DNA of 64,000 nucleotides from Escherichia coli (GCF_003334385.1 NZ_QOWN01000007.1); one strand, 5' to 3'; positions 12,903-23,881 are shown, counted from the first letter of the stretch. Numbers and translations are program-made. The notes: generated by a model from the sequence alone, not told the origin.

Positions 12903-13556
12903 TTACGCAGCTACGGCTAACGCTGCCAGTAATTCATTCATCGATAAATATCTTGCACTCGCCGCATTAAAGCAGGTTTGTTGGGCATCTTCTGATACCA
13001 CAATGGTGTTTATTCCTGCCGCCTGTGCTGCCTGAAAACCACTCACGCTGTCCTCTATAACCAAACAATCTGCAGCAGACAGTTGCAATTCTCGCAGTGC
13101 AGAAAGATAAACTGCCGGATGGGGTTTCCCATGCTTTTCGTCATCAGCACTACAAATCACCGAAAAATAATGCTGAATATTGAGTTTTGTCAGTACAGCA
13201 TCGATCACCTGGTAAGATGAAGAGGTTGCCAGCGCCAGTTGATAGCCACTCCGGCGCAAAAAAAATAACACGTCCTGAACGCCTGGCATCGCTTCGCCCG
13301 TCCCGGCAATCAACGTAGTGATCAGGCGGCGAATCTCACTTTCCAACAGTGCGGGTTCAATGTGTAAATGACAATATTCACACCAGGTTTGGGCAATCTC
13401 ATCCAGCCTTTTACCTTTAGTCAGTCTTATACACTCTTCGTCACTGACACATGCGCCCCACCTTGCCAGTGCTCCCTTTTGTGCCTCACGCCATAACCCT
13501 TCCGAATCAATGATGACGCCGTCCATATCAAAAATGACTGCTTTACAATTAAACAT
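12903..13556 (-). CDS. HAD-superfamily sugar-phosphatase / beta-phosphoglucomutase-like hydrolase (about 217 aa)
   Basis: ORF 12903..13601 (-); HAD motif I FDMDGVIID near the N-terminus; start chosen at ATG 13556 (MFNCKAVIFDMDGV). Confidence 0.6.
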   Translation of the reverse strand: MFNCKAVIFDMDGVIIDSEGLWREAQKGALARWGACVSDEECIRLTKGKRLDEIAQTWCEYCHLHIEPALLESEIRRLITTLIAGTGEAMPGVQDVLFFLRRSGYQLALATSSSYQVIDAVLTKLNIQHYFSVICSADDEKHGKPHPAVYLSALRELQLSAADCLVIEDSVSGFQAAQAAGINTIVVSEDAQQTCFNAASARYLSMNELLAALAVAA

Positions 13557-13600
13557 TGTTCCTCGCAATAAAGCCTGGCACCACACCAGGCTTGTCGTCA

Positions 13601-14878
13601 TCAGGAAATGGTGGCGGTCTTCCCTTCACACACTTGCTGATTTGAGAATCCCGGTTGTTCGACGCGAATAAACGGGCAAATAATAAACGCTATCACATAC
13701 AGGGTGGTGTAAGCGATAACCACACCAATAGTACTGAAATAAGGCAGAAGTACCACGGCGATTGCCGGAGCAAGGAAGTTGGACAACCCGGCTGAAAGGT
13801 TATAAACCGAAATAGCTGCTCCTTTATGTTTCGGTTCCAGTGCCGGGAAAACGGCTGCCATCGGTACGAATGCAGCAACAAAGATCCCCAGTGCCACCGC
13901 AGGTATCAGCGCCATAGCAAAGTTATGACCGAAATGTTGCGGCATGTAGTAGAACGCCAGGCTTGAAAGCGCCATTCCCACGCAACCAAACCAGCGAACA
14001 ACTTTCATCCAGCCCATTTTCTCTGCCAGCACGCCCCAGAATACGTTAGAGAAGATGGTGGTAAAGAAGAAGACTGCCCAGACCTGCAACCACTCAGAGG
14101 TGGTAAAGCCCAGCTCATCAACAAACATCATCGGCATAATTACGGCGAATCCGAATAAAGATAAGGTGTTGATAATGCGAACAATACTGGAAAGCAAAAT
14201 ATTGCGGTTGGTATAAAGCAAAGTCACCGCACGGCCCAGTTCGCTAAACTTCTCTTTTGTGGTTAGGTTTTGCATATGGCGTGGTGTTTCTACTTTGCGC
14301 ATAGAAATTAACGCAACAGCGCCACCAACCCCACAGAAGGCCAGCGCCAGCCATAATGTTCCCATTTCGCCAATAAGCGGAATGGTAAAACTGGGGATGT
14401 AGCTGCCGAATACGCCGATACCAATAGAGTAAACTGCCCAGAACCAGCCCAGAGCAGCACTGGTGCTGTCACTGCGTACGTTATGGACAATCGCCACAAT
14501 AAAGGCGTAGAGGAACAGCGGATAGGCTAGGCCACGAATACCATAAAACAGCAGGATTAACCCATAGTTCGCCTGCCCCAGACCAAAGACCAGAAACAGC
14601 ACGTGAAATACGCACCACAGCACAAAGCCGATAAACATGGTTTTTTGTGGCGTAATAATTTCGGCAACTACGCCGGAAACCCAGGCGGAAAGCGCTGCCG
14701 CCAGGCCATAGAGCGTAAAGGCAAAGGAGGCTTCTGCAGGCGTGAAACCCAGTGCTTTAATGTAATGCGACAGGAATGCCAGTTCAAAACCGTCTCCGGT
14801 CATAAAGATGGCAATGGCAATATATCCCCACACCAGATTTAAGGGTAATCCCAGCCATTGTTTATTTGTTAACGACAT
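13601..14878 (-). CDS. dalT: Pentitol (D-arabinitol) MFS transporter, DalT-like (about 425 aa)
   Basis: ORF 13601..14920 (-); start chosen at ATG 14878 (MSLTNKQWLGL) by alignment with the paralogous rbtT-like ORF; multi-TM. Confidence 0.7.
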   Translation of the reverse strand: MSLTNKQWLGLPLNLVWGYIAIAIFMTGDGFELAFLSHYIKALGFTPAEASFAFTLYGLAAALSAWVSGVVAEIITPQKTMFIGFVLWCVFHVLFLVFGLGQANYGLILLFYGIRGLAYPLFLYAFIVAIVHNVRSDSTSAALGWFWAVYSIGIGVFGSYIPSFTIPLIGEMGTLWLALAFCGVGGAVALISMRKVETPRHMQNLTTKEKFSELGRAVTLLYTNRNILLSSIVRIINTLSLFGFAVIMPMMFVDELGFTTSEWLQVWAVFFFTTIFSNVFWGVLAEKMGWMKVVRWFGCVGMALSSLAFYYMPQHFGHNFAMALIPAVALGIFVAAFVPMAAVFPALEPKHKGAAISVYNLSAGLSNFLAPAIAVVLLPYFSTIGVVIAYTTLYVIAFIICPFIRVEQPGFSNQQVCEGKTATIS

Positions 14879-14946
14879 AGTGACCTCGTTTGTAGGATAC
14901 AAAACGCCGCTCCGGTGCAAACACCGGAGGGCATTTGTGACAGATG

Positions 14947-16410
14947 TTATTGATTGCGATAGTTCAGGTCGTTGTGATACAGCGCAGTAAACTGCTGATA
15001 TCGTTGCATCAGCGCATTATGACGTTCAGGATCGCTGCGCCAGGTTTTGAAGATTTCAGGTTTTTCACACACTGCCGCCAGTGGTTTTCCCGCAGCAAGA
15101 CAGGCCAGACGCGCGGCTCCCAGCGCCCCACCCGTTTCACCGCCTTTATGCGTCACCACTGGCATATCGAGAATATCGGCCAGTAACTGCGCCCAGAATG
15201 GACTTCTCGCCCCCCCACCTACCAGCGAGCATTGCTCAATTGCCGTACCGCTTTCTTGCAGGACTCGCAGCCCATCGGCAATACCAAAGCTGACGCCTTC
15301 CAGCACTGCATATCCCATTAGCGCACGCTGACTGGAGTGTGTCAGCGCCCAGAACAATCCCCGGGCATGAGGATCGTTATGTGGCGTACGTTCACCAGAA
15401 AGATACGGGAGGAACATCGGTGCACTGGCTTTGTCTGCATCAGAAAGTTGGGCAATCTCTTCCAGTAACTCTGTTTCCGTTACCCCCACCAGACGGCAGA
15501 ACCATTGCAGACAACTGGCGGCACTGAGCATTACACTCATCTGGTGCCATAAATTCGGTAGTACGTGACAGAAAGCATGGACTGCTGATTGCGGCGCAGG
15601 ACGATAGGCATCTGTCACTACAAACAACACCCCGGAAGTTCCCAAAGAAATAAACGCATCTCCGGGAGAAACGGCCCCCACACCAATTGCGCTCACGGCG
15701 TTATCGCCACCGCCACCAGCAACTACAACCGAAGATGTCAGCCCCCAACGGCTGGCAACTTCAGGGGAAAGAGTGGCAGAAACGTCACAACCTTCCACCA
15801 GTTCCGGCATATTCGCCCGTGTCAGGCCACATTTTTCCAGCAACGAATCTGACCAGTCGCGTTTTTCCACGTCGAGCCACAACGTGCCAGCAGAATCCGA
15901 CATATCGGAAATCTTTTGGCCGGTCATTTTGAAACGCAAATAGTCTTTCGGCAGTAAAACGGTGGAAATGCGCGCAAAGTGCTGCGGCTCATGGCGCCGT
16001 ACCCATAGCAATTTGGGGGCGGTAAATCCAGGCATCGCCAGGTTTCCCGCTACCTGATGCAACTCTGGTGCGATCTCTTCCAGCTCCGCACACTCCTGCG
16101 CACTGCGGGTGTCGTTCCATAAAATCGCCGGACGAATCGCCTCTCCTTTTTCATCCAACAGGACGGCACCATGCATTTGACCAGAAAGGCCAATGGCTTT
16201 GATCGCCTGCCAGTGGTGACCGCATTTTTCCCGCAGGGTCGACATTAAATATTCCGTCGCTTCCCACCAGGCTTGCGGCGATTGTTCTGACCAGTGTGGA
16301 TGGGGCCGCTGAATGGTCAGCGGCGCACTATGGGTGGCAACAATTTCATTGTTTTCATCAATGACCAGCGCCTTAACTTCCGATGTGCCCAGATCGATAC
16401 CCAGATACAT
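14947..16410 (-). CDS. dalK: FGGY-family sugar kinase, xylulokinase (DalK/XylB-like, 487 aa)
   Basis: ORF 14947..16410 (-); N-terminal MYLGIDLGTSEVKA FGGY motif. Confidence 0.75.
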   Translation of the reverse strand: MYLGIDLGTSEVKALVIDENNEIVATHSAPLTIQRPHPHWSEQSPQAWWEATEYLMSTLREKCGHHWQAIKAIGLSGQMHGAVLLDEKGEAIRPAILWNDTRSAQECAELEEIAPELHQVAGNLAMPGFTAPKLLWVRRHEPQHFARISTVLLPKDYLRFKMTGQKISDMSDSAGTLWLDVEKRDWSDSLLEKCGLTRANMPELVEGCDVSATLSPEVASRWGLTSSVVVAGGGGDNAVSAIGVGAVSPGDAFISLGTSGVLFVVTDAYRPAPQSAVHAFCHVLPNLWHQMSVMLSAASCLQWFCRLVGVTETELLEEIAQLSDADKASAPMFLPYLSGERTPHNDPHARGLFWALTHSSQRALMGYAVLEGVSFGIADGLRVLQESGTAIEQCSLVGGGARSPFWAQLLADILDMPVVTHKGGETGGALGAARLACLAAGKPLAAVCEKPEIFKTWRSDPERHNALMQRYQQFTALYHNDLNYRNQ

Positions 16411-16423
16411 AACCGCCTCCTGG

Positions 16424-17791
16424 TTAGTTAATTAACGCGTAGACGTCAGCGATTTTTTCGCGCAACAACGCGGCAAAATCTTCACGTTCGGTTAAATCGC
16501 CAAACAGCGCTTTATCACTGGCATAAACAGCGACGGGATCGGCAGACTGGAACATTGCATGGACAGCTGGTGCATCAAGGATGCCATCCTGATATTCATA
16601 GGGCAGTTTGCCGTGATGCCATTGCTCCATGAATACGTAAAACAGTGCAGGTAACATGGCGGTGGCATTCGGGCGAACGCCTCGCTGGTAGCACTCTCGC
16701 AGTGTGGGGGCAATCATCGCCGGAATTTTCGAGAAACCATCCGCAGCGACGCGTTGGTTGGTGTCCTGAATATGTGGATTGGTAAAACGCTTGAGTACAA
16801 CATCACGGTAGGTTGGCAAATCGATACCGTTATCGCCCAAGCAAGGAATGACATCTTCCGTCACGTAGCGGTCGGCAATCTGATAGATAAAATCGGTCAT
16901 TGTGCTTTCGTGGATATATTTTTGACCGATTAACGTACCTGCCCAGGCGATGCAACTGTGTGAAGAGTTAAGAATGCGAATCTTCGCCTCTTCATAGGGG
17001 ATTACCGACGCCACCAGTTCGACACCGACCTTCTCCAGTGCCGGACGGACATCACGGAAATTATCTTCCACGACCCACTGGATAAAGGTTTCGCCCATTA
17101 CCGGCGCTTTATCGGCAATACCCGTTTGAGCCTTGATCCGTGCCGGAAGTTCTGCTGCCGGACGAGGCGTAATGCGGTCAACCATGGTATTCGGGCAAGT
17201 GGTATTTGTACTCAGCCAGTCGATGACATCCTGTTTGCCAGTTAGCTGGAGAAACTCAACCAGGCCATCATGGAAACGTTCACCATTATGGCGCACGTTA
17301 TCGCAATTCAGCAGGGTTAGTGGTCCGGCGTTATTTGCCATACGTGCTTCGAGGATACGGGTAATAACACCGTAAATTGTTTTGCATCCCCCTTTAAGAT
17401 CTGCCGCTAAATCAGGATTGTTAACTTCCAGTTTGTGACTGGTATTCAGGTAGTACCCGCCTTCGGTGACGGTGAAAGCAATCACTTTTGTCTTCGGATC
17501 TGCCCCTTCAGCAATCAGCGGTTGTAAATCTGCCTGCCACGGTATCAACTTCTGAATTGAGGTGATCTCTTCATATTCGCTTACCCCTTCCGGGCTGACG
17601 GTTTCCAGCACATAGCGACCTTTCTGTGCACTGAGTGCCTGTACGACATGTTCAGCATCATTACGAATATTGCCCGCAGCAATGCTCCAGCGTTTATCGC
17701 CCATCACCTGCAAACGGTGTAGATACCACGCCTGATGTGCGCGATGAAAAGAACCTAACCCGATGTGCAGCCATGTAAATTGTTCGTTCAT
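16424..17791 (-). CDS. dalD: Mannitol-dehydrogenase-family D-arabinitol 4-dehydrogenase (DalD-like, about 455 aa)
   Basis: ORF 16424..17836 (-); start chosen at ATG 17791 preceded by GGAG; N-terminal [13 protein letters not shown] nucleotide-binding motif. Confidence 0.75.
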
Positions 17792-18003
17792 TGTTTCGTT
17801 CTCCATTGACGTTATGGCTGAACTGTAATCGAACATTTGAGTTAATTAAGAGCGTTAGATCACAAAAGAACAATTGACCAAAAAAATTACAAATGACCAA
17901 ATCAAAGCAATAAACTTGCCTCGCGGTAAAGCTATGGCCAAAATGACGCTAATCAGTTGCGGGATTTTCACGATTCCGCACGCCACTTTTGAGGTAGGGA
18001 AAC

Positions 18004-18945
18004 GTGAACAAAGAAGATGACATCAGGCTCGATCAAAAAGTACGGGCGGCATGGATGTACTACATTGCCGGACTTAATCAGAGTGAAATCGCAAGTCAGT
18101 TAGGTACTTCACGGCCAGTGGTTCAACGCCTGATAGCAGCAGCGAAAGACGAAGGGATTGTGTCGATTGGATTGCATCATCCGGTTGCCAACTGTCTCGA
18201 TTATGCCCAACTGTTAAAGGAAAAGTACCAATTAACCGACTGCAATATTATGCCGGTTTACAGTATTGAAAGTACGCTCGACAGCGTGACATTTGGCTGT
18301 TATCAACTGATGGCGCGTTACTTACAGGGTGACAAACCGACCATCGTTGGTATTGGTTCTGGCTTAACGTTGAAGAAAACCATTAAACGTATCGATTTTG
18401 ATAGTCAGAATACCCGCTGTGTGGCGCTGATTAGCGCCATGAATGAACACGGGCAATGTAACTATTACGACGACGTACCGCTGCTTTTGGCGAGAAAAAT
18501 TCAGGGAAAATATTACCAGTGGCCAGCTCCACGCTATGCTCAGTCCCGCGAAGAGTACCAAATGTGGTCAACCAATCGATTGTTCCGCAACGTCTCTACC
18601 GTAGCGCGTGACTCTGATGTTATTTTCGTGGGTATTGGTGCTTTAGGTCGTCAAAGCCCTATTTTCAAAGATGGCTTTATTGATGAGCAGCAACTGGAAG
18701 AGTTAACAGCACGCGGAGGCGTTGGTGAAATCCTCGGACGCTTTATTGATGCTGAAGGCAATGTTGTGGAAAGCCAGATCAACCAGATGATCACCAGCCA
18801 TGATATCCGCGAAAGCAACTGCCCACGTATCGCAGCTGCCTGTGGTGAGGATAAACGTCCGGCGATCCTCGCAGCATTAAAAGGTGGGTGGATCAACGGT
18901 CTGGTCACCGATGAACACACCGCACGCTGGTTGCTGACACGTTAA
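18004..18945 (+). CDS. dalR: SorC/DeoR-like sugar-binding transcriptional regulator, divergent from the dal operon (DalR-like, 313 aa)
   Basis: ORF with GTG start at 18004 and GAGGTAGGG upstream; N-terminal HTH (LNQSEIASQLGTSRPVVQRL) plus sugar-binding-type C-terminus. Confidence 0.65.
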   Translation: MNKEDDIRLDQKVRAAWMYYIAGLNQSEIASQLGTSRPVVQRLIAAAKDEGIVSIGLHHPVANCLDYAQLLKEKYQLTDCNIMPVYSIESTLDSVTFGCYQLMARYLQGDKPTIVGIGSGLTLKKTIKRIDFDSQNTRCVALISAMNEHGQCNYYDDVPLLLARKIQGKYYQWPAPRYAQSREEYQMWSTNRLFRNVSTVARDSDVIFVGIGALGRQSPIFKDGFIDEQQLEELTARGGVGEILGRFIDAEGNVVESQINQMITSHDIRESNCPRIAAACGEDKRPAILAALKGGWINGLVTDEHTARWLLTR

Positions 18946-18947
18946 TC

Positions 18948-19979
18948 TCAGCTGACAACATTCAGGCTCGGAATGAGTTGTGGCGGTATCTCAATGCGAC
19001 GCAGGGTGGTATCGCCAGAATCCACAATTTCAAACACTTTTTCGAGCATGGCGGGTACATCCTGACGAACCATATCGATATCGTGCCCGAGCAGAGAAAC
19101 AAAAGGATCCCAGTCAAAACACCCCATTGGCGGTTGATTGGCTCCCGTCTGCCCGGTTTGCGCCAGCCAGCGAACCACCCCTTCAAGAGAGATTGTCGAG
19201 TTGACGAATAACCCGTGAAGCGATACTGCAGAGCTTTGGAAGACCTCTTTCAGTAATCCCTCTACGCGAGCAGAAGAGTAGCCGGTAACCAGTTTATGTT
19301 CATCCGGTACGGTTATCCCCAAAGCCTGATGGGCATCGACAAAACCACATAAACGTTCAGCAGTATTGTTATCGCTTATACGTCCACCGACAAAAGTCAA
19401 AGGTGCCAGCTTGCCATAGCGTTTCTGGCTGTTGGCTAAAATTCTTTCCGTCAATAATTTCGCCCCCATATAGTTATCAGAAATGATCGACGGCGCCAGT
19501 GTTCCCGGCAGATCCAGATTCAGTGTCGGTACGCCCGCTTGCTGGCACATTTGGGCTATTTTATCCGGTTGAGTCGCTCCGGTAGCAATGACCCAATCCA
19601 CCTGCCAGGAGAGCATGGCGCGAGCAGCCTCAATTTCCAGTTCTGGCTGTCGCCGCGTACAGGTGATGATTGGCAGTAATCCTCTGGCACGCGCCATCTC
19701 TTCAAATTTTTCGGCAATCGATCCAAAGTATCGGTTGTCATATTTCGGCACAATCATGCCAATAACGTTGGATTTTTTACTGCGCAGTAAACTTGCCTGC
19801 CGATTAATGGCATATCCCTGCTCTTCCGCAATACGGGAGACCTTCTCAGCCAGCTTTGCGCTGATGCGTCGCTTTTTCCAGTTGCCATTCAAAATAGCGC
19901 TTACCGCACTGGCAGAAACGCCGGTTAATTCTGCCAGGTCGTAAATGGTCGTTTTCTTCGTTTTCTCAACGCGTGTCAC
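18948..19979 (-). CDS. rbtR: LacI-family transcriptional regulator, divergent from the ribitol operon (RbtR-like by position, 343 aa)
   Basis: ORF 18948..19979 (-); LacI-type HTH TIYDLAELTGVSASAVSAILNG; symbol assigned by adjacency, not verified. Confidence 0.6.
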   Translation of the reverse strand: MTRVEKTKKTTIYDLAELTGVSASAVSAILNGNWKKRRISAKLAEKVSRIAEEQGYAINRQASLLRSKKSNVIGMIVPKYDNRYFGSIAEKFEEMARARGLLPIITCTRRQPELEIEAARAMLSWQVDWVIATGATQPDKIAQMCQQAGVPTLNLDLPGTLAPSIISDNYMGAKLLTERILANSQKRYGKLAPLTFVGGRISDNNTAERLCGFVDAHQALGITVPDEHKLVTGYSSARVEGLLKEVFQSSAVSLHGLFVNSTISLEGVVRWLAQTGQTGANQPPMGCFDWDPFVSLLGHDIDMVRQDVPAMLEKVFEIVDSGDTTLRRIEIPPQLIPSLNVVS

Positions 19980-20137
19980 AAATTTGCCTCTTCATTTTGA
20001 ATGTCTCTTGCTGAGAATTTAAGCAAGTGCTAGATCTGCTTCATCGATTGAGCAGTTTGCTTCACACGGCAGCTAAATTCCCGTTCAGTGCGTGCAAGCA
20101 AACAGAGACTATAAATTCGCCCTGGTAAAAGGATTAT

Positions 20138-20890
20138 ATGATGAATCACTCTGTGCCCTCTATGAATACTCCCCTTAATGGCAAAGTTGCAGCTATCACT
20201 GGCGCTGCGTCAGGTATTGGCCTGCAATGTGCAAAAACGCTGCTCGATGCAGGAGCAAAGGTAGTATTGATTGACCGGGAAGGCGACAAACTGCACAAGA
20301 TTGTCGCTGAGTTAGGCGAAAACGCGTACGCGCTGCAACTCGATCTCTTCAATAATCAGCAAGTCGATAACATGCTGGCGGACATTATCGAACTGGCGGG
20401 TGGGCTGGATATTTTTCATGCCAATGCAGGCGCTTATATTGGCGGCCCAGTGGCTGAAGGTGATCCAGATGTCTGGGATCGTGTGTTAAATCTGAATATA
20501 AATGCGGCGTTTCGCTGTGTCCGTGCAGTCCTGCCGCATATGATTGCGCAGAGGTCGGGCGATATAATTTTTACCAGTTCCATCGCGGGCGTCGTTCCGG
20601 TTATCTGGGAACCGATCTACACCGCGTCCAAATTTGCCGTTCAGGCATTCGTACACACTACCCGCCGCCAGGTTTCTCAATATGGCGTGCGTGTGGGTGC
20701 GGTGCTGCCAGGACCAGTAGTCACTGCCCTGCTTGATGACTGGCCAAAAGCCAAAATGGAAGAAGCCCTGGCAAATGGTAGCCTGATGCAACCGATTGAA
20801 GTGGCGGAATCAGTATTGTTTATGGTGACCCGCTCGAAAAATGTCACCGTGCGAGATTTAGTGATCCTGCCTGGCAGTGTCGATCTGTAA
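20138..20890 (+). CDS. rbtD: Short-chain dehydrogenase, ribitol 2-dehydrogenase (RbtD-like, 250 aa)
   Basis: SDR motifs TGAASGIG and YTASKFAV; close resemblance to Klebsiella ribitol dehydrogenase as I recall it. Confidence 0.8.
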
Positions 20891-20900
20891 GGGCGCAATC

Positions 20901-22505
20901 ATGACAATAACCAAAACCGTTATTGGTGTTGATGTGGGATCAGGCAGTGTCCGCGCCGGGATTTTTGATCTCAACGGATCTCTGCTATCCCATGCCACAG
21001 AAAAAATCACGACTACGCGGCGCAGCGGAAGCCGCGTGGAACAGTCCAGCCAGGAGATCTGGCAGGCGGTCTGTTCATGTATTCGTAATGCGCTCACTCT
21101 GGCAGACGTTTGTGCACAAAGTGTGGCAGGCATCGGTTTTGATGCCACCTGTTCTCTGGTGGTACTGGATAAAAACGGTGATCCATTGCCTGTCAGCCCG
21201 GAAGGAGATGCAAAGCAAAATATCATTGTGTGGATGGATCACCGCGCCACCGAACAAGCAGAGCGAATCAATGCCACTCACCATCCGGTGCTGAACTACG
21301 TCGGTGGTAAAATTTCGCCTGAAATGGAAACACCGAAAATTCTCTGGCTGAAAGAAAATATGCCAGAGATCTACGAACGTGCCGGACAATTTTTCGATCT
21401 GGCCGATTTTCTGACCTGGCGGGCTACCGGTGATTTAGCGCGTTCAGTATGCACTGTTACCTGTAAATGGACGTGGCTGGCACATGAAAATCGCTGGGAT
21501 CCAGATTATTTCCGCACCATTGGCCTTGCAGAGTTAGCGGATGAAGATTTTATTCGCATTGGTCATCATATTGTTTCTCCCGGAACACCTTGTGGAAATG
21601 GTTTAACAGCACAAGCCGCGGCAGAGATGGGATTACTCCCCGGCACACCTGTCGCTGTAGGGTTAATTGATGCTCACGCTGGTGGCATCGGTACGGTTGG
21701 CGTAGAAGGTGGAGCGCTGAACAATCTCGCGTATGTTTTCGGCACTTCTTCATGCACCATGGCATCTACCACTTCTCCCTCGTTTGTACCGGGTGTCTGG
21801 GGGCCGTATTACAGTGCGATGGTTCCAGGTCTGTGGTTAGTTGAAGGCGGGCAAAGTGCTGCGGGAGCAGCTATTGACCAGCTACTTGATTTCCATCCGG
21901 CTGTTGAAGAAGCTCGCGAAATGGCACAACGTGTGAATCAGCCCCTCCCCGTCTGGCTTGCTGATCGAATCCTCGAAAAAACGGCGCAACCATCAGATGC
22001 TGTCGCCCTGGCGAAAGGGCTACACGTGGTGCCGGAATTTCTCGGAAATCGCGCCCCCTTCGCAGATCCTCATGCCAGAGCGGTAATTTGTGGCCTGGGT
22101 ATGGAGCGAGATCTGGATAATTTACTCGCCTTGTATATCGCTGGATTATGCGGAATTGGTTATGGTCTGCGCCAAATTCTCGACGCTCAAACAGCGCAGG
22201 GAGTAGTGAGTAAAAATATCGTTATTAGCGGCGGTGCCGGGCAGCATCCACTGGTACGACAAATTCTGGCAGATACCTGCGGTATTCCGGTCATTACCAC
22301 GCAATGCTGCGAACCGGTTTTATTAGGCTCGGCCATTCTTGGTGCTGTCGCCGGAAATATTGCACCTTCTGTTGGCGAAGCGATGCAACAATTCACCCAT
22401 GTGGATAAATATTATTATCCGCAAGAACGCTATCAATCTCTTCATCATCGTCGATATGAGGCCTATAAGCAGTTGCAGCATACTGCAAAATTACTCAGAG
22501 ACTAA
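20901..22505 (+). CDS. rbtK: FGGY-family D-ribulokinase (RbtK-like, about 534 aa)
   Basis: ORF 20877..22505; ATG at 20901 just after the rbtD stop; IGVDVGSGSVRAG FGGY motif. Confidence 0.75.
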   Translation: MTITKTVIGVDVGSGSVRAGIFDLNGSLLSHATEKITTTRRSGSRVEQSSQEIWQAVCSCIRNALTLADVCAQSVAGIGFDATCSLVVLDKNGDPLPVSPEGDAKQNIIVWMDHRATEQAERINATHHPVLNYVGGKISPEMETPKILWLKENMPEIYERAGQFFDLADFLTWRATGDLARSVCTVTCKWTWLAHENRWDPDYFRTIGLAELADEDFIRIGHHIVSPGTPCGNGLTAQAAAEMGLLPGTPVAVGLIDAHAGGIGTVGVEGGALNNLAYVFGTSSCTMASTTSPSFVPGVWGPYYSAMVPGLWLVEGGQSAAGAAIDQLLDFHPAVEEAREMAQRVNQPLPVWLADRILEKTAQPSDAVALAKGLHVVPEFLGNRAPFADPHARAVICGLGMERDLDNLLALYIAGLCGIGYGLRQILDAQTAQGVVSKNIVISGGAGQHPLVRQILADTCGIPVITTQCCEPVLLGSAILGAVAGNIAPSVGEAMQQFTHVDKYYYPQERYQSLHHRRYEAYKQLQHTAKLLRD

Positions 22506-22606
22506 TTAACCAGCCGCCTGACGCTGTTTTCAGGCAATCACTAATAACGACTCACTCCGGTAATATCCCGGAGTGCATTCATCTGCACCCTAAAAACGAG
22601 GTTTAT

Positions 22607-23881
22607 ATGTCCAGAAATAATAAACAGTGGTTGGGTTTGCCACTGCATCTGATATGGGGATATATCGCCATCGCAGTATTTATGACTGGTGATGGTTTCG
22701 AACTCGCATTCTTATCGCACTATATTAAATCGTTAGGCTTCACACCTGCGGAAGCCTCTTTTGCCTTTACGCTCTACGGCCTGGCGGCTGCCCTTTCCGC
22801 CTGGGTTTCTGGGGTAGTAGCGGAAATCATCACGCCGCAAAAAACCATGCTGATTGGTTTTGTCCTATGGTGCGTATTCCATGTTCTGTTTCTGGTCTTT
22901 GGATTAGGACAGGCAAACTATGGGTTAATCCTGCTGTTTTACGGGATTCGTGGTTTAGCGTATCCGCTATTTCTCTACTCATTTATCGTCGTTATTATTC
23001 ATAACGTGCGTAGCGAAAATTCCAGTTCTGCTCTGGGTTGGTACTGGGCGGTATATTCAGTAGGGATCGGTGTTGCTGGCAGTTATATTCCCAGTTTTAC
23101 GATACCGATTATGGGTGAAATGGGAACCTTATGGCTGGCACTGGCGTTCTGCTTTGCTGGCGGTGTCATTGCCATGATCTCCTTGCGTCATGTTAAAACG
23201 CCTGGACATATGCATAATTTAACTCCCCGTGAGAAGTTTGCAGAATTAAGTCGGGCAGTAACTTTACTTTATACCAACCGCAATATTTTTCTCTCCAGTA
23301 TTGTGCGCATTATAAATACCTTATCGTTATTCGGTTTTGCGGTCATTATGCCAATGATGTTTGTGGATGAACTGGGATTCACCACCTCTGAATGGTTGCA
23401 GGTCTGGGCGGCATTTTTCTTTACCACTATTTTCTCTAATATTTTTTGGGGGATTGTGGCAGAAAAAATGGGCTGGATGCGTGTTATTCGCTGGTTTGGT
23501 TGCCTCGGGATGGCAGCATCAAGTTTAGCGTTTTACTACATGCCGCAATACTTTGGTCACAACTACTGGATGGCAATGATTCCGGCGATTGCTCTGGGAA
23601 CTTTTGTTGCTGCATTTGTGCCGATGGCCGCTGTCTTCCCGGCACTGGAACCAAAACACAAAGGTGCTGCAATCTCGGTTTACAACCTCTCTGCGGGTAT
23701 GTCTAACTTCCTGGCTCCGGCAATTGCCGTGGTGTTATTACCGTGGTTTAGCACTATCGGTGTGGTCATTGCCTATACAGCATTGTATCTATTGGCCTTT
23801 GTCCTTTGCGCATTCATTCGCGTTGAGCAGCCAGGATTCAGTTCTGCGCCAGTGACTGAGAAGGCATTGAATATCTCCTGA
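22607..23881 (+). CDS. rbtT: Pentitol (ribitol) MFS transporter, RbtT-like (424 aa); paralog of the dalT-like gene
   Basis: ORF 22607..23881; long stretches of amino-acid identity with the 13601..14878 product. Confidence 0.7.
   Translation: MSRNNKQWLGLPLHLIWGYIAIAVFMTGDGFELAFLSHYIKSLGFTPAEASFAFTLYGLAAALSAWVSGVVAEIITPQKTMLIGFVLWCVFHVLFLVFGLGQANYGLILLFYGIRGLAYPLFLYSFIVVIIHNVRSENSSSALGWYWAVYSVGIGVAGSYIPSFTIPIMGEMGTLWLALAFCFAGGVIAMISLRHVKTPGHMHNLTPREKFAELSRAVTLLYTNRNIFLSSIVRIINTLSLFGFAVIMPMMFVDELGFTTSEWLQVWAAFFFTTIFSNIFWGIVAEKMGWMRVIRWFGCLGMAASSLAFYYMPQYFGHNYWMAMIPAIALGTFVAAFVPMAAVFPALEPKHKGAAISVYNLSAGMSNFLAPAIAVVLLPWFSTIGVVIAYTALYLLAFVLCAFIRVEQPGFSSAPVTEKALNIS

Follow-up and report, generated by a model that had tools for sequence, protein, structure and literature searches.

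The systems with which the control region of the D-arabinitol operon can best be compared are those of the Bacillus subtilis repressors DeoR and CggR and of Escherichia coli LsrR. DeoR and CggR are tetramers that act on operators made of two halves, and single half-operators are not bound (PMC11229326). The TTGAACA half-site of DeoR is read through base contacts made by R34 and R39 (PMC11229326). The CggR/gapA operator is described as a tandem direct repeat occupied cooperatively by a tetramer, the inducer lowering this cooperativity (PMC2943609, PMC11229326). LsrR is also a tetramer (PMC11229326), and the gap between lsrR and lsrA contains LsrR boxes for both promoters together with two CRP sites (PMC5137460). 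Work on Vibrio sp. dhg showed that xylB is derepressed when the divergent regulator beside atlA-xylB-atlT, the presumed orthologue of DalR, is lost, and that re-expression of the regulator lowers xylB up to 100-fold (PMC9134653).

The DNA analysed here, referred to as the window, is a stretch of 64,000 nucleotides matched at 100% identity by E. coli chromosomes. It carries a D-arabinitol/ribitol island (12903-23881) which is flanked by yegS and fbaB and is present in 330 of 5426 complete E. coli genomes (~6%). A HAD hydrolase gene, dalT, xylB (dalK) and dalD lie on the minus strand, dalD being the first gene of dalD-xylB(dalK)-dalT. They are followed on the plus strand by dalR, which encodes a SorC-family "sugar-binding transcriptional regulator". 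The LacI-family regulator gene rbtR is on the minus strand directly downstream of dalR, and rbtD, rbtK and rbtT come after it on the plus strand. The divergent genes dalD and dalR are separated by 212 bp (17792-18003), the span to which the original prediction assigned operator and catabolite-control motifs; its naming of the two genes, dalD and dalR, is borne out by the open reading frames, the annotation and the Pfam domains, which show dalD divergent from a gene for a SorC-family regulator. The ribosome-binding site of dalD, GGAG, is the complement of 17801-17804, 9 nt upstream of the ATG. In the literature available to the search, no paper on a DalR operator was found; the Klebsiella genes were reportedly sequenced by Heuel et al. 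in 1998, and that work and Scangos and Reiner (1978) may already propose sites.

Two copies of the 8-mer TGACCAAA in this gap belong to a conserved bipartite element which, judged from its sequence and its distribution, is most likely the DalR operator. The element consists of the units called B and C in Table 1, where the other features of the gap are also collected.

Table 1. Features of the dalD-dalR gap and of the corresponding Vibrio loci. Positions are those of the window unless a locus is named; information content is from 21 non-redundant enterobacterial gaps.
Feature	Position	Strand	Bits per column	Remarks
dalD, D-arabinitol 4-dehydrogenase	16424..17791	-		from the ORF list; start at 17791; 100% identical RefSeq annotation "dalD"
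Predicted dalD -10, TACAGT on minus strand	17822..17827	-		predicted start ~17815
Unit A, AATCGAACATTTGAGT	17827-17842	+		weak in-register copy in the dalD promoter spacer; putative function
Unit 0, TTAAGAGCGTTAGATC	17846-17861			weak copy coinciding with the CRP-like site
CRP-like site, TGTGATCTAACGCTCT on minus strand	17849..17864	-	1.59	centre 17856.5; overlaps unit 0
Unit B, putative DalR operator, AAAAGAACAATTGACC	17864-17879	+	1.51	contains the first TGACCAAA; tandem repeat
Unit C, putative DalR operator, AAAATTACAAATGACC	17883-17898	+	1.65	contains the second TGACCAAA; nearly invariant
Unit D, ATCAAAGCAATAAACT	17901-17916	+		doubtful partial copy beside the dalR -35
Predicted dalR -35, TTGCCT	17916..17921	+	1.78 (TTGCC, 17915-17921)	TTGC columns invariant in 37 aligned enterobacterial gaps
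Predicted dalR -10, CAAAAT	17939..17944	+		inside the third motif; predicted start ~17951
dalR leader			0.46	
Whole gap			1.09	
dalR, SorC-family repressor, GTG start	18004..18945	+		from the ORF list
V. furnissii inverted repeat	L039 3828-3847 / 3855-3874			20 nt, TCACAAATGAACAAAAGACC; perfect
V. hibernica inverted repeat				18 nt; perfect
V. neptunius inverted repeat				21 nt; 95%

An alignment of DalR homologues was used to scan one genome per species, which gave 46 loci. Nearly all of these keep dalD divergent from dalR with a gap of 190-270 bp, from Enterobacterales to Vibrionaceae and Alteromonadales. The comparable set consists of the 45 orthologous gaps between dalD and dalR, from Enterobacterales and Vibrionaceae, that contain TCACAAA. 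Thirty-seven enterobacterial gaps were aligned, and 20 non-redundant ones served to tabulate the register of the units. A single block aligns ungapped in all 37 of them, ACTGTA-N20-TAAGAGC-N4-GATCACAAAAGAGCAA(A/T)TGACC-N4-AAATTACAAATGACCA-N5-GAGCAA-N4-CTTGCC-N17-(C/G)AnAATG. The footprint core, TAAGAGC-N4-GATCACAAAAGAGCAA-TGACC-N-AAATTACAAATGACCA, is conserved; the dalR leader, by contrast, varies almost at random.

Several loci deserve a separate remark. A contig labelled Chryseobacterium sp. 18061 (L029) has a dal locus of enterobacterial type with a DalR 77% identical to that of E. coli, and one labelled uncultured Lacinutrix (L038) has a locus of Vibrio type with a DalR 63% identical to that of E. 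coli; contamination or mis-binning is likely in both. In C. koseri NCTC10786 (L003 2672-3791), S. rubidaea NCTC12971 (L037 2637-3762) and L. adecarboxylata NCTC13032 (L031 3040-3501), dalD is split between reading frames or matched only in part, which reflects either pseudogenes or indel errors of assembly. In an enterobacterial metagenome-derived genome (L027 3004-4001) the gap is 996 bp long, with the units on the dalD side intact and extra DNA before dalR. The allele of E. coli O55:H7 (L002 1-14593) is ~83% identical over the 2.6-kb query from dalD to dalR; rbtT is missing from it, and gatR and gatD follow directly. The "genotypic exclusion" of pentitol and galactitol genes is an old concept, and the layout of the O55:H7 island fits it.

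The two copies of TGACCAAA (17875-17882 and 17894-17901) and the third motif, TGGCCAAAATGAC (17935-17947), lie exactly where the original prediction had placed them. The TGTGATC element that it located at 17840-17855 on the minus strand is displaced by ~15 bp, GATCACA being found on the plus strand at 17858-17864. The 8-mer occurs nine times on both strands of the 64 kb against 2.6 expected, and this excess may come from oligonucleotide or codon bias. At the rate given by the seven copies elsewhere (window 1364, 7578, 10340, 23552, 30325, 31143 and 46254), ~0.02 copies are expected in the 212-bp gap, and the Poisson probability of two is ~3e-4. None of these seven matches the extended 16-mer unit described below. 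The two copies in the gap are the 3′ parts of a tandem direct repeat, 17864-17882 and 17883-17901, of 19 nt and 84% identity; a direct match of 12 of 14 positions at any lag from 8 to 60 was seen in 3 of 300 shuffles of the gap. The real evidence for the motifs is their conservation rather than such window statistics.

Conservation also changes the outline of the motif. The 8-mer itself is not the conserved unit, as its trailing AA(A) is variable in both copies, and the first copy reaches only 1.08 bits per column in the 21 non-redundant enterobacterial gaps. The repeat that is conserved reads ACAAWTGACC(A), with an A-rich 5′ part. Units B and C share the consensus AAAAGA(G/A)CAAATGACC and are 16-bp elements 19 bp apart. 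The pair is found in register at this distance in 20 of 20 non-redundant enterobacterial gaps and, by matrix scan, in Mangrovibacter yixingensis (L018). Loss of the motifs from orthologous promoters would have spoken against the original prediction, and no such loss is seen: copy 2 is nearly invariant, and copy 1 is in register and conserved, if more variable than copy 2. The right half of unit B reads GACC, ACCC, GCTC, GATC or GCCC among the 20 gaps. A scoring matrix trained on the enterobacterial units B and C only gives 24.6 for B and 25.8 for C, against a maximum of 10.2 elsewhere in the window.

Further copies of the 16-mer, absent from the original prediction, stand in register at steps of 18-19 bp across the gap. 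Over 20 species the mean matrix score is +2.8 for unit A, +2.7 for unit 0 and -1.1 for unit D, with a background of -16.8 +/- 5.2. Unit A keeps its register 56 bp to the left of unit C in these 20 species, and the G, A, C and A of its GAnCA are conserved. In unit D, GAGCAA is moderately conserved; the distance from TCACA to the -35 varies among lineages from 55 to 70 bp, so that unit D keeps no constant phase. We regard B and C as solid, A and 0 as plausible and D as doubtful.

The internal structure of the unit can be described in two ways. The core GAnCAAWTGAnC has two to four symmetric pairs out of six, so the units are weakly palindromic. A perfect palindrome, GAGCAATTGCTC, is seen in C. 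koseri only, with a one-mismatch version in E. coli O55:H7. An internal direct sub-repeat of 8 bp is an equally good description of the unit, and the matrix peaks recur at 8-bp shifts because the unit is itself made of two similar 8-mers, AAAWGAVC. Two matrix hits inside dalR, 18222-18237 (+) and 18630-18645 (-), were considered as auxiliary operators since they are among the ten best of the window. They were set aside as chance hits, the homologous positions in 47 loci not being conserved (median score ~0). Readings of the gap as IHF-, ArcA- or CytR-like sites were dropped on inspection by eye, because conservation does not extend to the bases that match. Another direct repeat, 13 nt long (TATGGCTGAACTG / TATGGCCAAAATG), lies at window 17813-17825 and 17933-17945, where it overlaps both predicted -10 regions; its copies are 77% identical and weakly conserved, and it is probably due to chance.

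It is hardly credible that the tandem repeat is a chance or neutral duplication with no function. Short two-copy repeats are common, and in the E. coli O55:H7 allele the first TGACCAAA is replaced by TGCTCTAT, the second copy being kept except for one base (TGACCACA). Against this, register and sequence are conserved across genera while the neighbouring leader is randomized, and the Vibrio loci, an independent test, also contain the units. The comparative data effectively refute this explanation. It is also quite improbable that the A/T-rich repeats merely belong to the promoter architecture as UP elements, bent A-tract DNA or Fis/IHF sites. Units B and C are indeed A-rich with periodicities of 8 and 19 bp, and, counted from either predicted promoter, they extend from about -49 to -87, overlapping the zone of UP elements. 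Yet the best-conserved positions are not A-tracts but G and C at fixed register (GAnC, TGACC), the B/C element occurs only in this gap within the 64 kb, and an exact palindrome of 20 nt in Vibrio is typical of a sequence-specific dimeric or tetrameric protein.

The Vibrio loci are an independent test of the units. DalR is ~65% identical in Vibrionaceae, and the matrix finds unit B at its usual place and, on the opposite strand, a second unit. Inversion of the second unit is seen in four Vibrio loci and one Aliivibrio locus; in Enterobacterales this unit is direct. Where the Vibrio operator is palindromic (four loci, L032, L034, L036 and L039), unit B is on the same strand as in E. coli. The arms of the inverted repeat, measured in three loci, are 18-21 nt long and 95-100% complementary. 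The two units of V. furnissii score 16.1 and 16.1, against 12.7 for the 99th percentile in shuffles. From unit B to the second unit, the distance between centres in Vibrio is 19 bp, as in Enterobacterales, when the 12-bp core GAnCAAnnGAnC is considered, and 23 bp when the 16-mer is considered. Other arrangements are also found. In V. viridaestus units A, 0 and B are used instead, with unit A scoring best (18.7); V. albus has three direct GAGCAAA units; and in Colwellia and Psychromonas weaker unit-like sequences are present near dalD.

The protein expected to recognize these units is DalR itself. Precomputed Pfam assignments place PF04198 and PF13384 on identical and related proteins, and the closest solved structures, matched over the full length, are LsrR (2.6e-34), B. 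subtilis DeoR (6e-27) and SorC (2.7e-23). R34 and R39 of DeoR align with R37 and R42 of DalR, both invariant in the DalR alignment, when residue numbers are deduced from the structure chain. In every locus with strong units the recognition helix is SRPVVQRLIA, and it changes to SRP(A/S)(V/A)QRMIA in Colwellia and Psychromonas. It is highly improbable that another regulator, either the LacI-family RbtR or an unlinked factor, occupies the units. The rbtR gene is immediately downstream of dalR, and unit B of C. koseri is a perfect 14-bp palindrome, AGAGCAATTGCTCT, superficially like a LacI operator, with one mismatch in O55:H7 (AGAGCAAATGCTCT). Nevertheless, the units persist in loci without rbtR and rbtD, such as those of E. 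asburiae, K. indica, Mangrovibacter, Rouxiella and Vibrio, and they are intact in at least 12 loci, Vibrio included, where the fetched DNA has no rbtR or rbtD. The units therefore track dalR and dalD and not the ribitol regulator. LacI-family operators typically have a central CG, which the units lack, and the units co-vary with the recognition helix of DalR.

On the dalD side of unit B, the possible CRP half-site of the original prediction is one half of a complete CRP-like site of 16 bp, AGAGC-N6-TCACA. Of the 45 comparable loci, all have TCACA and 40 have AGAGC, always 6 bp apart. The CRP consensus is matched at seven of 10 positions, and the three mismatches leave all four G:C pairs intact. 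At three mismatches, this consensus has 197 matches in the window against 227 expected, so that the match alone is not above chance. A GATC (Dam) site, 17858-17861, falls in the strong half of this CRP-like sequence; most species keep it, and the Buttiauxella group has CGTC, CATC or AATC instead.

Both promoters of the gap were deduced from conservation and not from a consensus scan, which found in the gap neither a sigma-70 promoter nor a terminator. The scan would not be expected to reveal a consensus promoter for dalD, because an activator-dependent promoter has a poor -35. At a fixed offset of 38 bp from TCACA, all 45 loci have TAnnnT (TACAGT in 23, TACATT in 10, TAGAGT in eight and others in four), and positions 1, 2, 4 and 6 of this hexamer have a high information content; a -10 element would be expected to show such a pattern. 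Because the conserved TAnnnT puts the start near 17815, the CRP-like centre would fall at ~-41.5, which is the class II position. AGAGC-N6-TCACA can accordingly be read from the sequence as the putative CRP site of a class II dalD promoter with a poor -35.

The AAGAGC bases resemble the repeat unit as well, and their conservation cannot be assigned unambiguously to CRP. A different reading, somewhat unlikely on balance, is that AAGAGC-N4-GATC(ACA) is DalR unit 0 and not a CRP site, the gap then holding an array of four or five DalR units on which CRP does not act directly. Unit 0 stands 18-19 bp to the left of unit B, in register, and scores above the background, as reported above; its scores are 9-12 in the Vibrio loci, and L038 gives 15.3. 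As a half-site for CRP, AGAGC is poor and yet is widely kept, and the inverted arm in V. furnissii, V. hibernica and V. neptunius carries TGTGA or TTTGA, so that CACAAA may belong to the unit. Other features speak for CRP. Unit B is preceded by an invariant CAC, whereas the three equivalent bases that precede the A-rich stretch of unit C vary, and the Buttiauxella group keeps TCACA despite its changes in GATC. The distance from the conserved -10 is the classic one for class II promoters, with a poor -35, and the pentitol operons of Klebsiella are subject to catabolite repression.

On the dalR side, the original prediction had counted the third motif among its candidate operator and catabolite-control sites. 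Its conserved core, GCCAnAATG, lies 17 bp downstream of TTGCC in 42 of the 45 loci and varies like a -10 hexamer, so that it is better read, on sequence grounds, as the putative -10 of dalR. TTGCC(T/A)-N17-(C/G)AnAAT is found in the same 42 loci, always with a 17-bp spacer, and the hexamer varies as (C/G)A(A/G/C)AAT. The TGAC tail of the motif is limited to the loci of E. coli, Citrobacter, Enterobacter cloacae and Leclercia (L005). In the window, the dalR promoter is below the threshold of a simple scan; across orthologues it has the sigma-70 pattern, with conserved -35 and -10 elements and a spacer within 16-18 bp. The earlier view of the gap as a region of candidate operator and catabolite-control sites is thus supported in part: units B and C are conserved as a bipartite element and the CRP-like sequence is conserved as a full site, whereas the third motif is, for the most part, better taken as a putative -10.

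Small G+C-rich hairpins are present in the dalR leader at window 17961-17981 and 17967-18008, one of which can pair with the region of the GTG start. Hairpins of different sequence are found in the same place in many species, with folding energies no different from those of shuffles (z mostly -1 to +0.5), and the idea of a structured leader was dropped for this reason. No Rfam family matched 17600-18200 at E-values up to 1, which indicates no known RNA element.

Taken together, units B and C probably form the main DalR operator, which would stand beside a CRP site and between two promoters in a compact back-to-back control region. By our own arithmetic, the midpoint of the two units (17883) is also the midpoint of the two predicted starts. 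If DalR behaves like DeoR and CggR of B. subtilis, it may bind B and C cooperatively as a tetramer built of two dimers. Unit B would then abut the CRP site near -41.5 of an activator-dependent class II dalD promoter, with TACAGT as -10 and a poor -35, and the weaker units 0 and A would overlap the CRP site and the promoter spacer. Since the units abut or overlap these elements, DalR is expected to exclude CRP and RNA polymerase from the dalD promoter. Bound DalR would probably also dampen its own promoter, TTGCCT-N17-CAAAAT. D-arabinitol or a derivative may occupy the sugar-binding domain and release DalR, after which cAMP-CRP would activate dalD. With respect to each of the two predicted core promoters, B and C lie upstream, at ~-58 and ~-77; a simple steric block would hence require either the weaker units (A, 0 and D) or a competition between DalR and CRP, both of which are presumed. 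An extension of this scheme, tentative but conceivable, is a four- or five-unit DalR array (A, 0, B, C and possibly D) with a period of ~18.5 bp, running from the dalD promoter spacer to the dalR -35. If so, DalR would form a higher-order assembly, either a pair of tetramers or one octamer, that extends outward from the two strong units in the centre, and it would compete with CRP for a shared site.

The analysis provides a testable operator/promoter map for the D-arabinitol operon, which also occurs in Klebsiella, Enterobacter and Vibrio species. Operators have been defined for very few members of the SorC family, and the present one would come third or fourth; it exists naturally in a direct and an inverted form and could help to show how SorC-family tetramers read DNA. 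If the second unit is indeed used in either orientation at the same 19-bp core spacing, these tetramers would be indifferent to the orientation of the half-operator. From a practical point of view, removal of the Vibrio sp. dhg repressor unlocks the xylulokinase needed for engineered xylose use (PMC9134653). The general picture of sugar-operon regulation is unchanged.

Compared with the systems introduced above, the locus resembles most closely that of DeoR. The DeoR operator has two halves of roughly 16 bp, and the tetramer needs both (PMC11229326); by analogy, DalR may bind the two 16-bp units found here. As in a bipartite operator of the SorC type, the two similar halves are about two helical turns apart, a spacing below that of DeoR and CggR, and a SorC-family repressor is encoded at the locus. 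DeoR and DalR have the same domain layout and size, their base-contacting arginines align and the SRPxVxRL helix is conserved; in both cases the regulator gene adjoins the operon that it controls or, for DalR, would control. The right half of the DeoR operator, TTACATATGTTCAA, and unit C, TTACAAATGACCAA, agree at 12 of 16 positions, a marginal likeness reached in ~5% of shuffles, and a comparison with the left half-operator does not pick out unit B. The spacing is 19 bp here, 22-23 bp in DeoR by our own count on the published 39-bp operator and ~21 bp in CggR. The DeoR operator extends from -60 to -21 and shares bases with the -35; units B and C, in contrast, are placed between two divergent promoters, beside the CRP-like site.

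The CggR operator is, like B and C, a tandem direct repeat. CggR belongs to the winged-helix subclass and differs from DalR in the type of DNA-binding domain, its repeat is G-rich (CGGGAC-N6-TGTC), and its operator is downstream of the start, from +32 to +77. The gap between lsrR and lsrACDBFG in E. coli shares with the present one the divergent arrangement of regulator and operon, and LsrR is the best structural relative of DalR. The LsrR box elements (AACAAT ... AAGATTTAA) differ from the DalR unit, two CRP sites are present there against one candidate here, and the effector of LsrR is phospho-AI-2 and not a pentitol.

In class II CRP promoters such as galP1, a site near -41.5 replaces a poor -35, and one half of the site is strong and the other weak. 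Here the position is relative to a predicted start, and the strong half would be TGTGATCTA. The conservation of the weak half is unusually high and suggests an additional constraint, the overlap with a DalR-type unit. Set against these systems, the control region is an ordinary sugar-operon switch of a known type, in which the occurrence of a direct or an inverted second half is mildly interesting.
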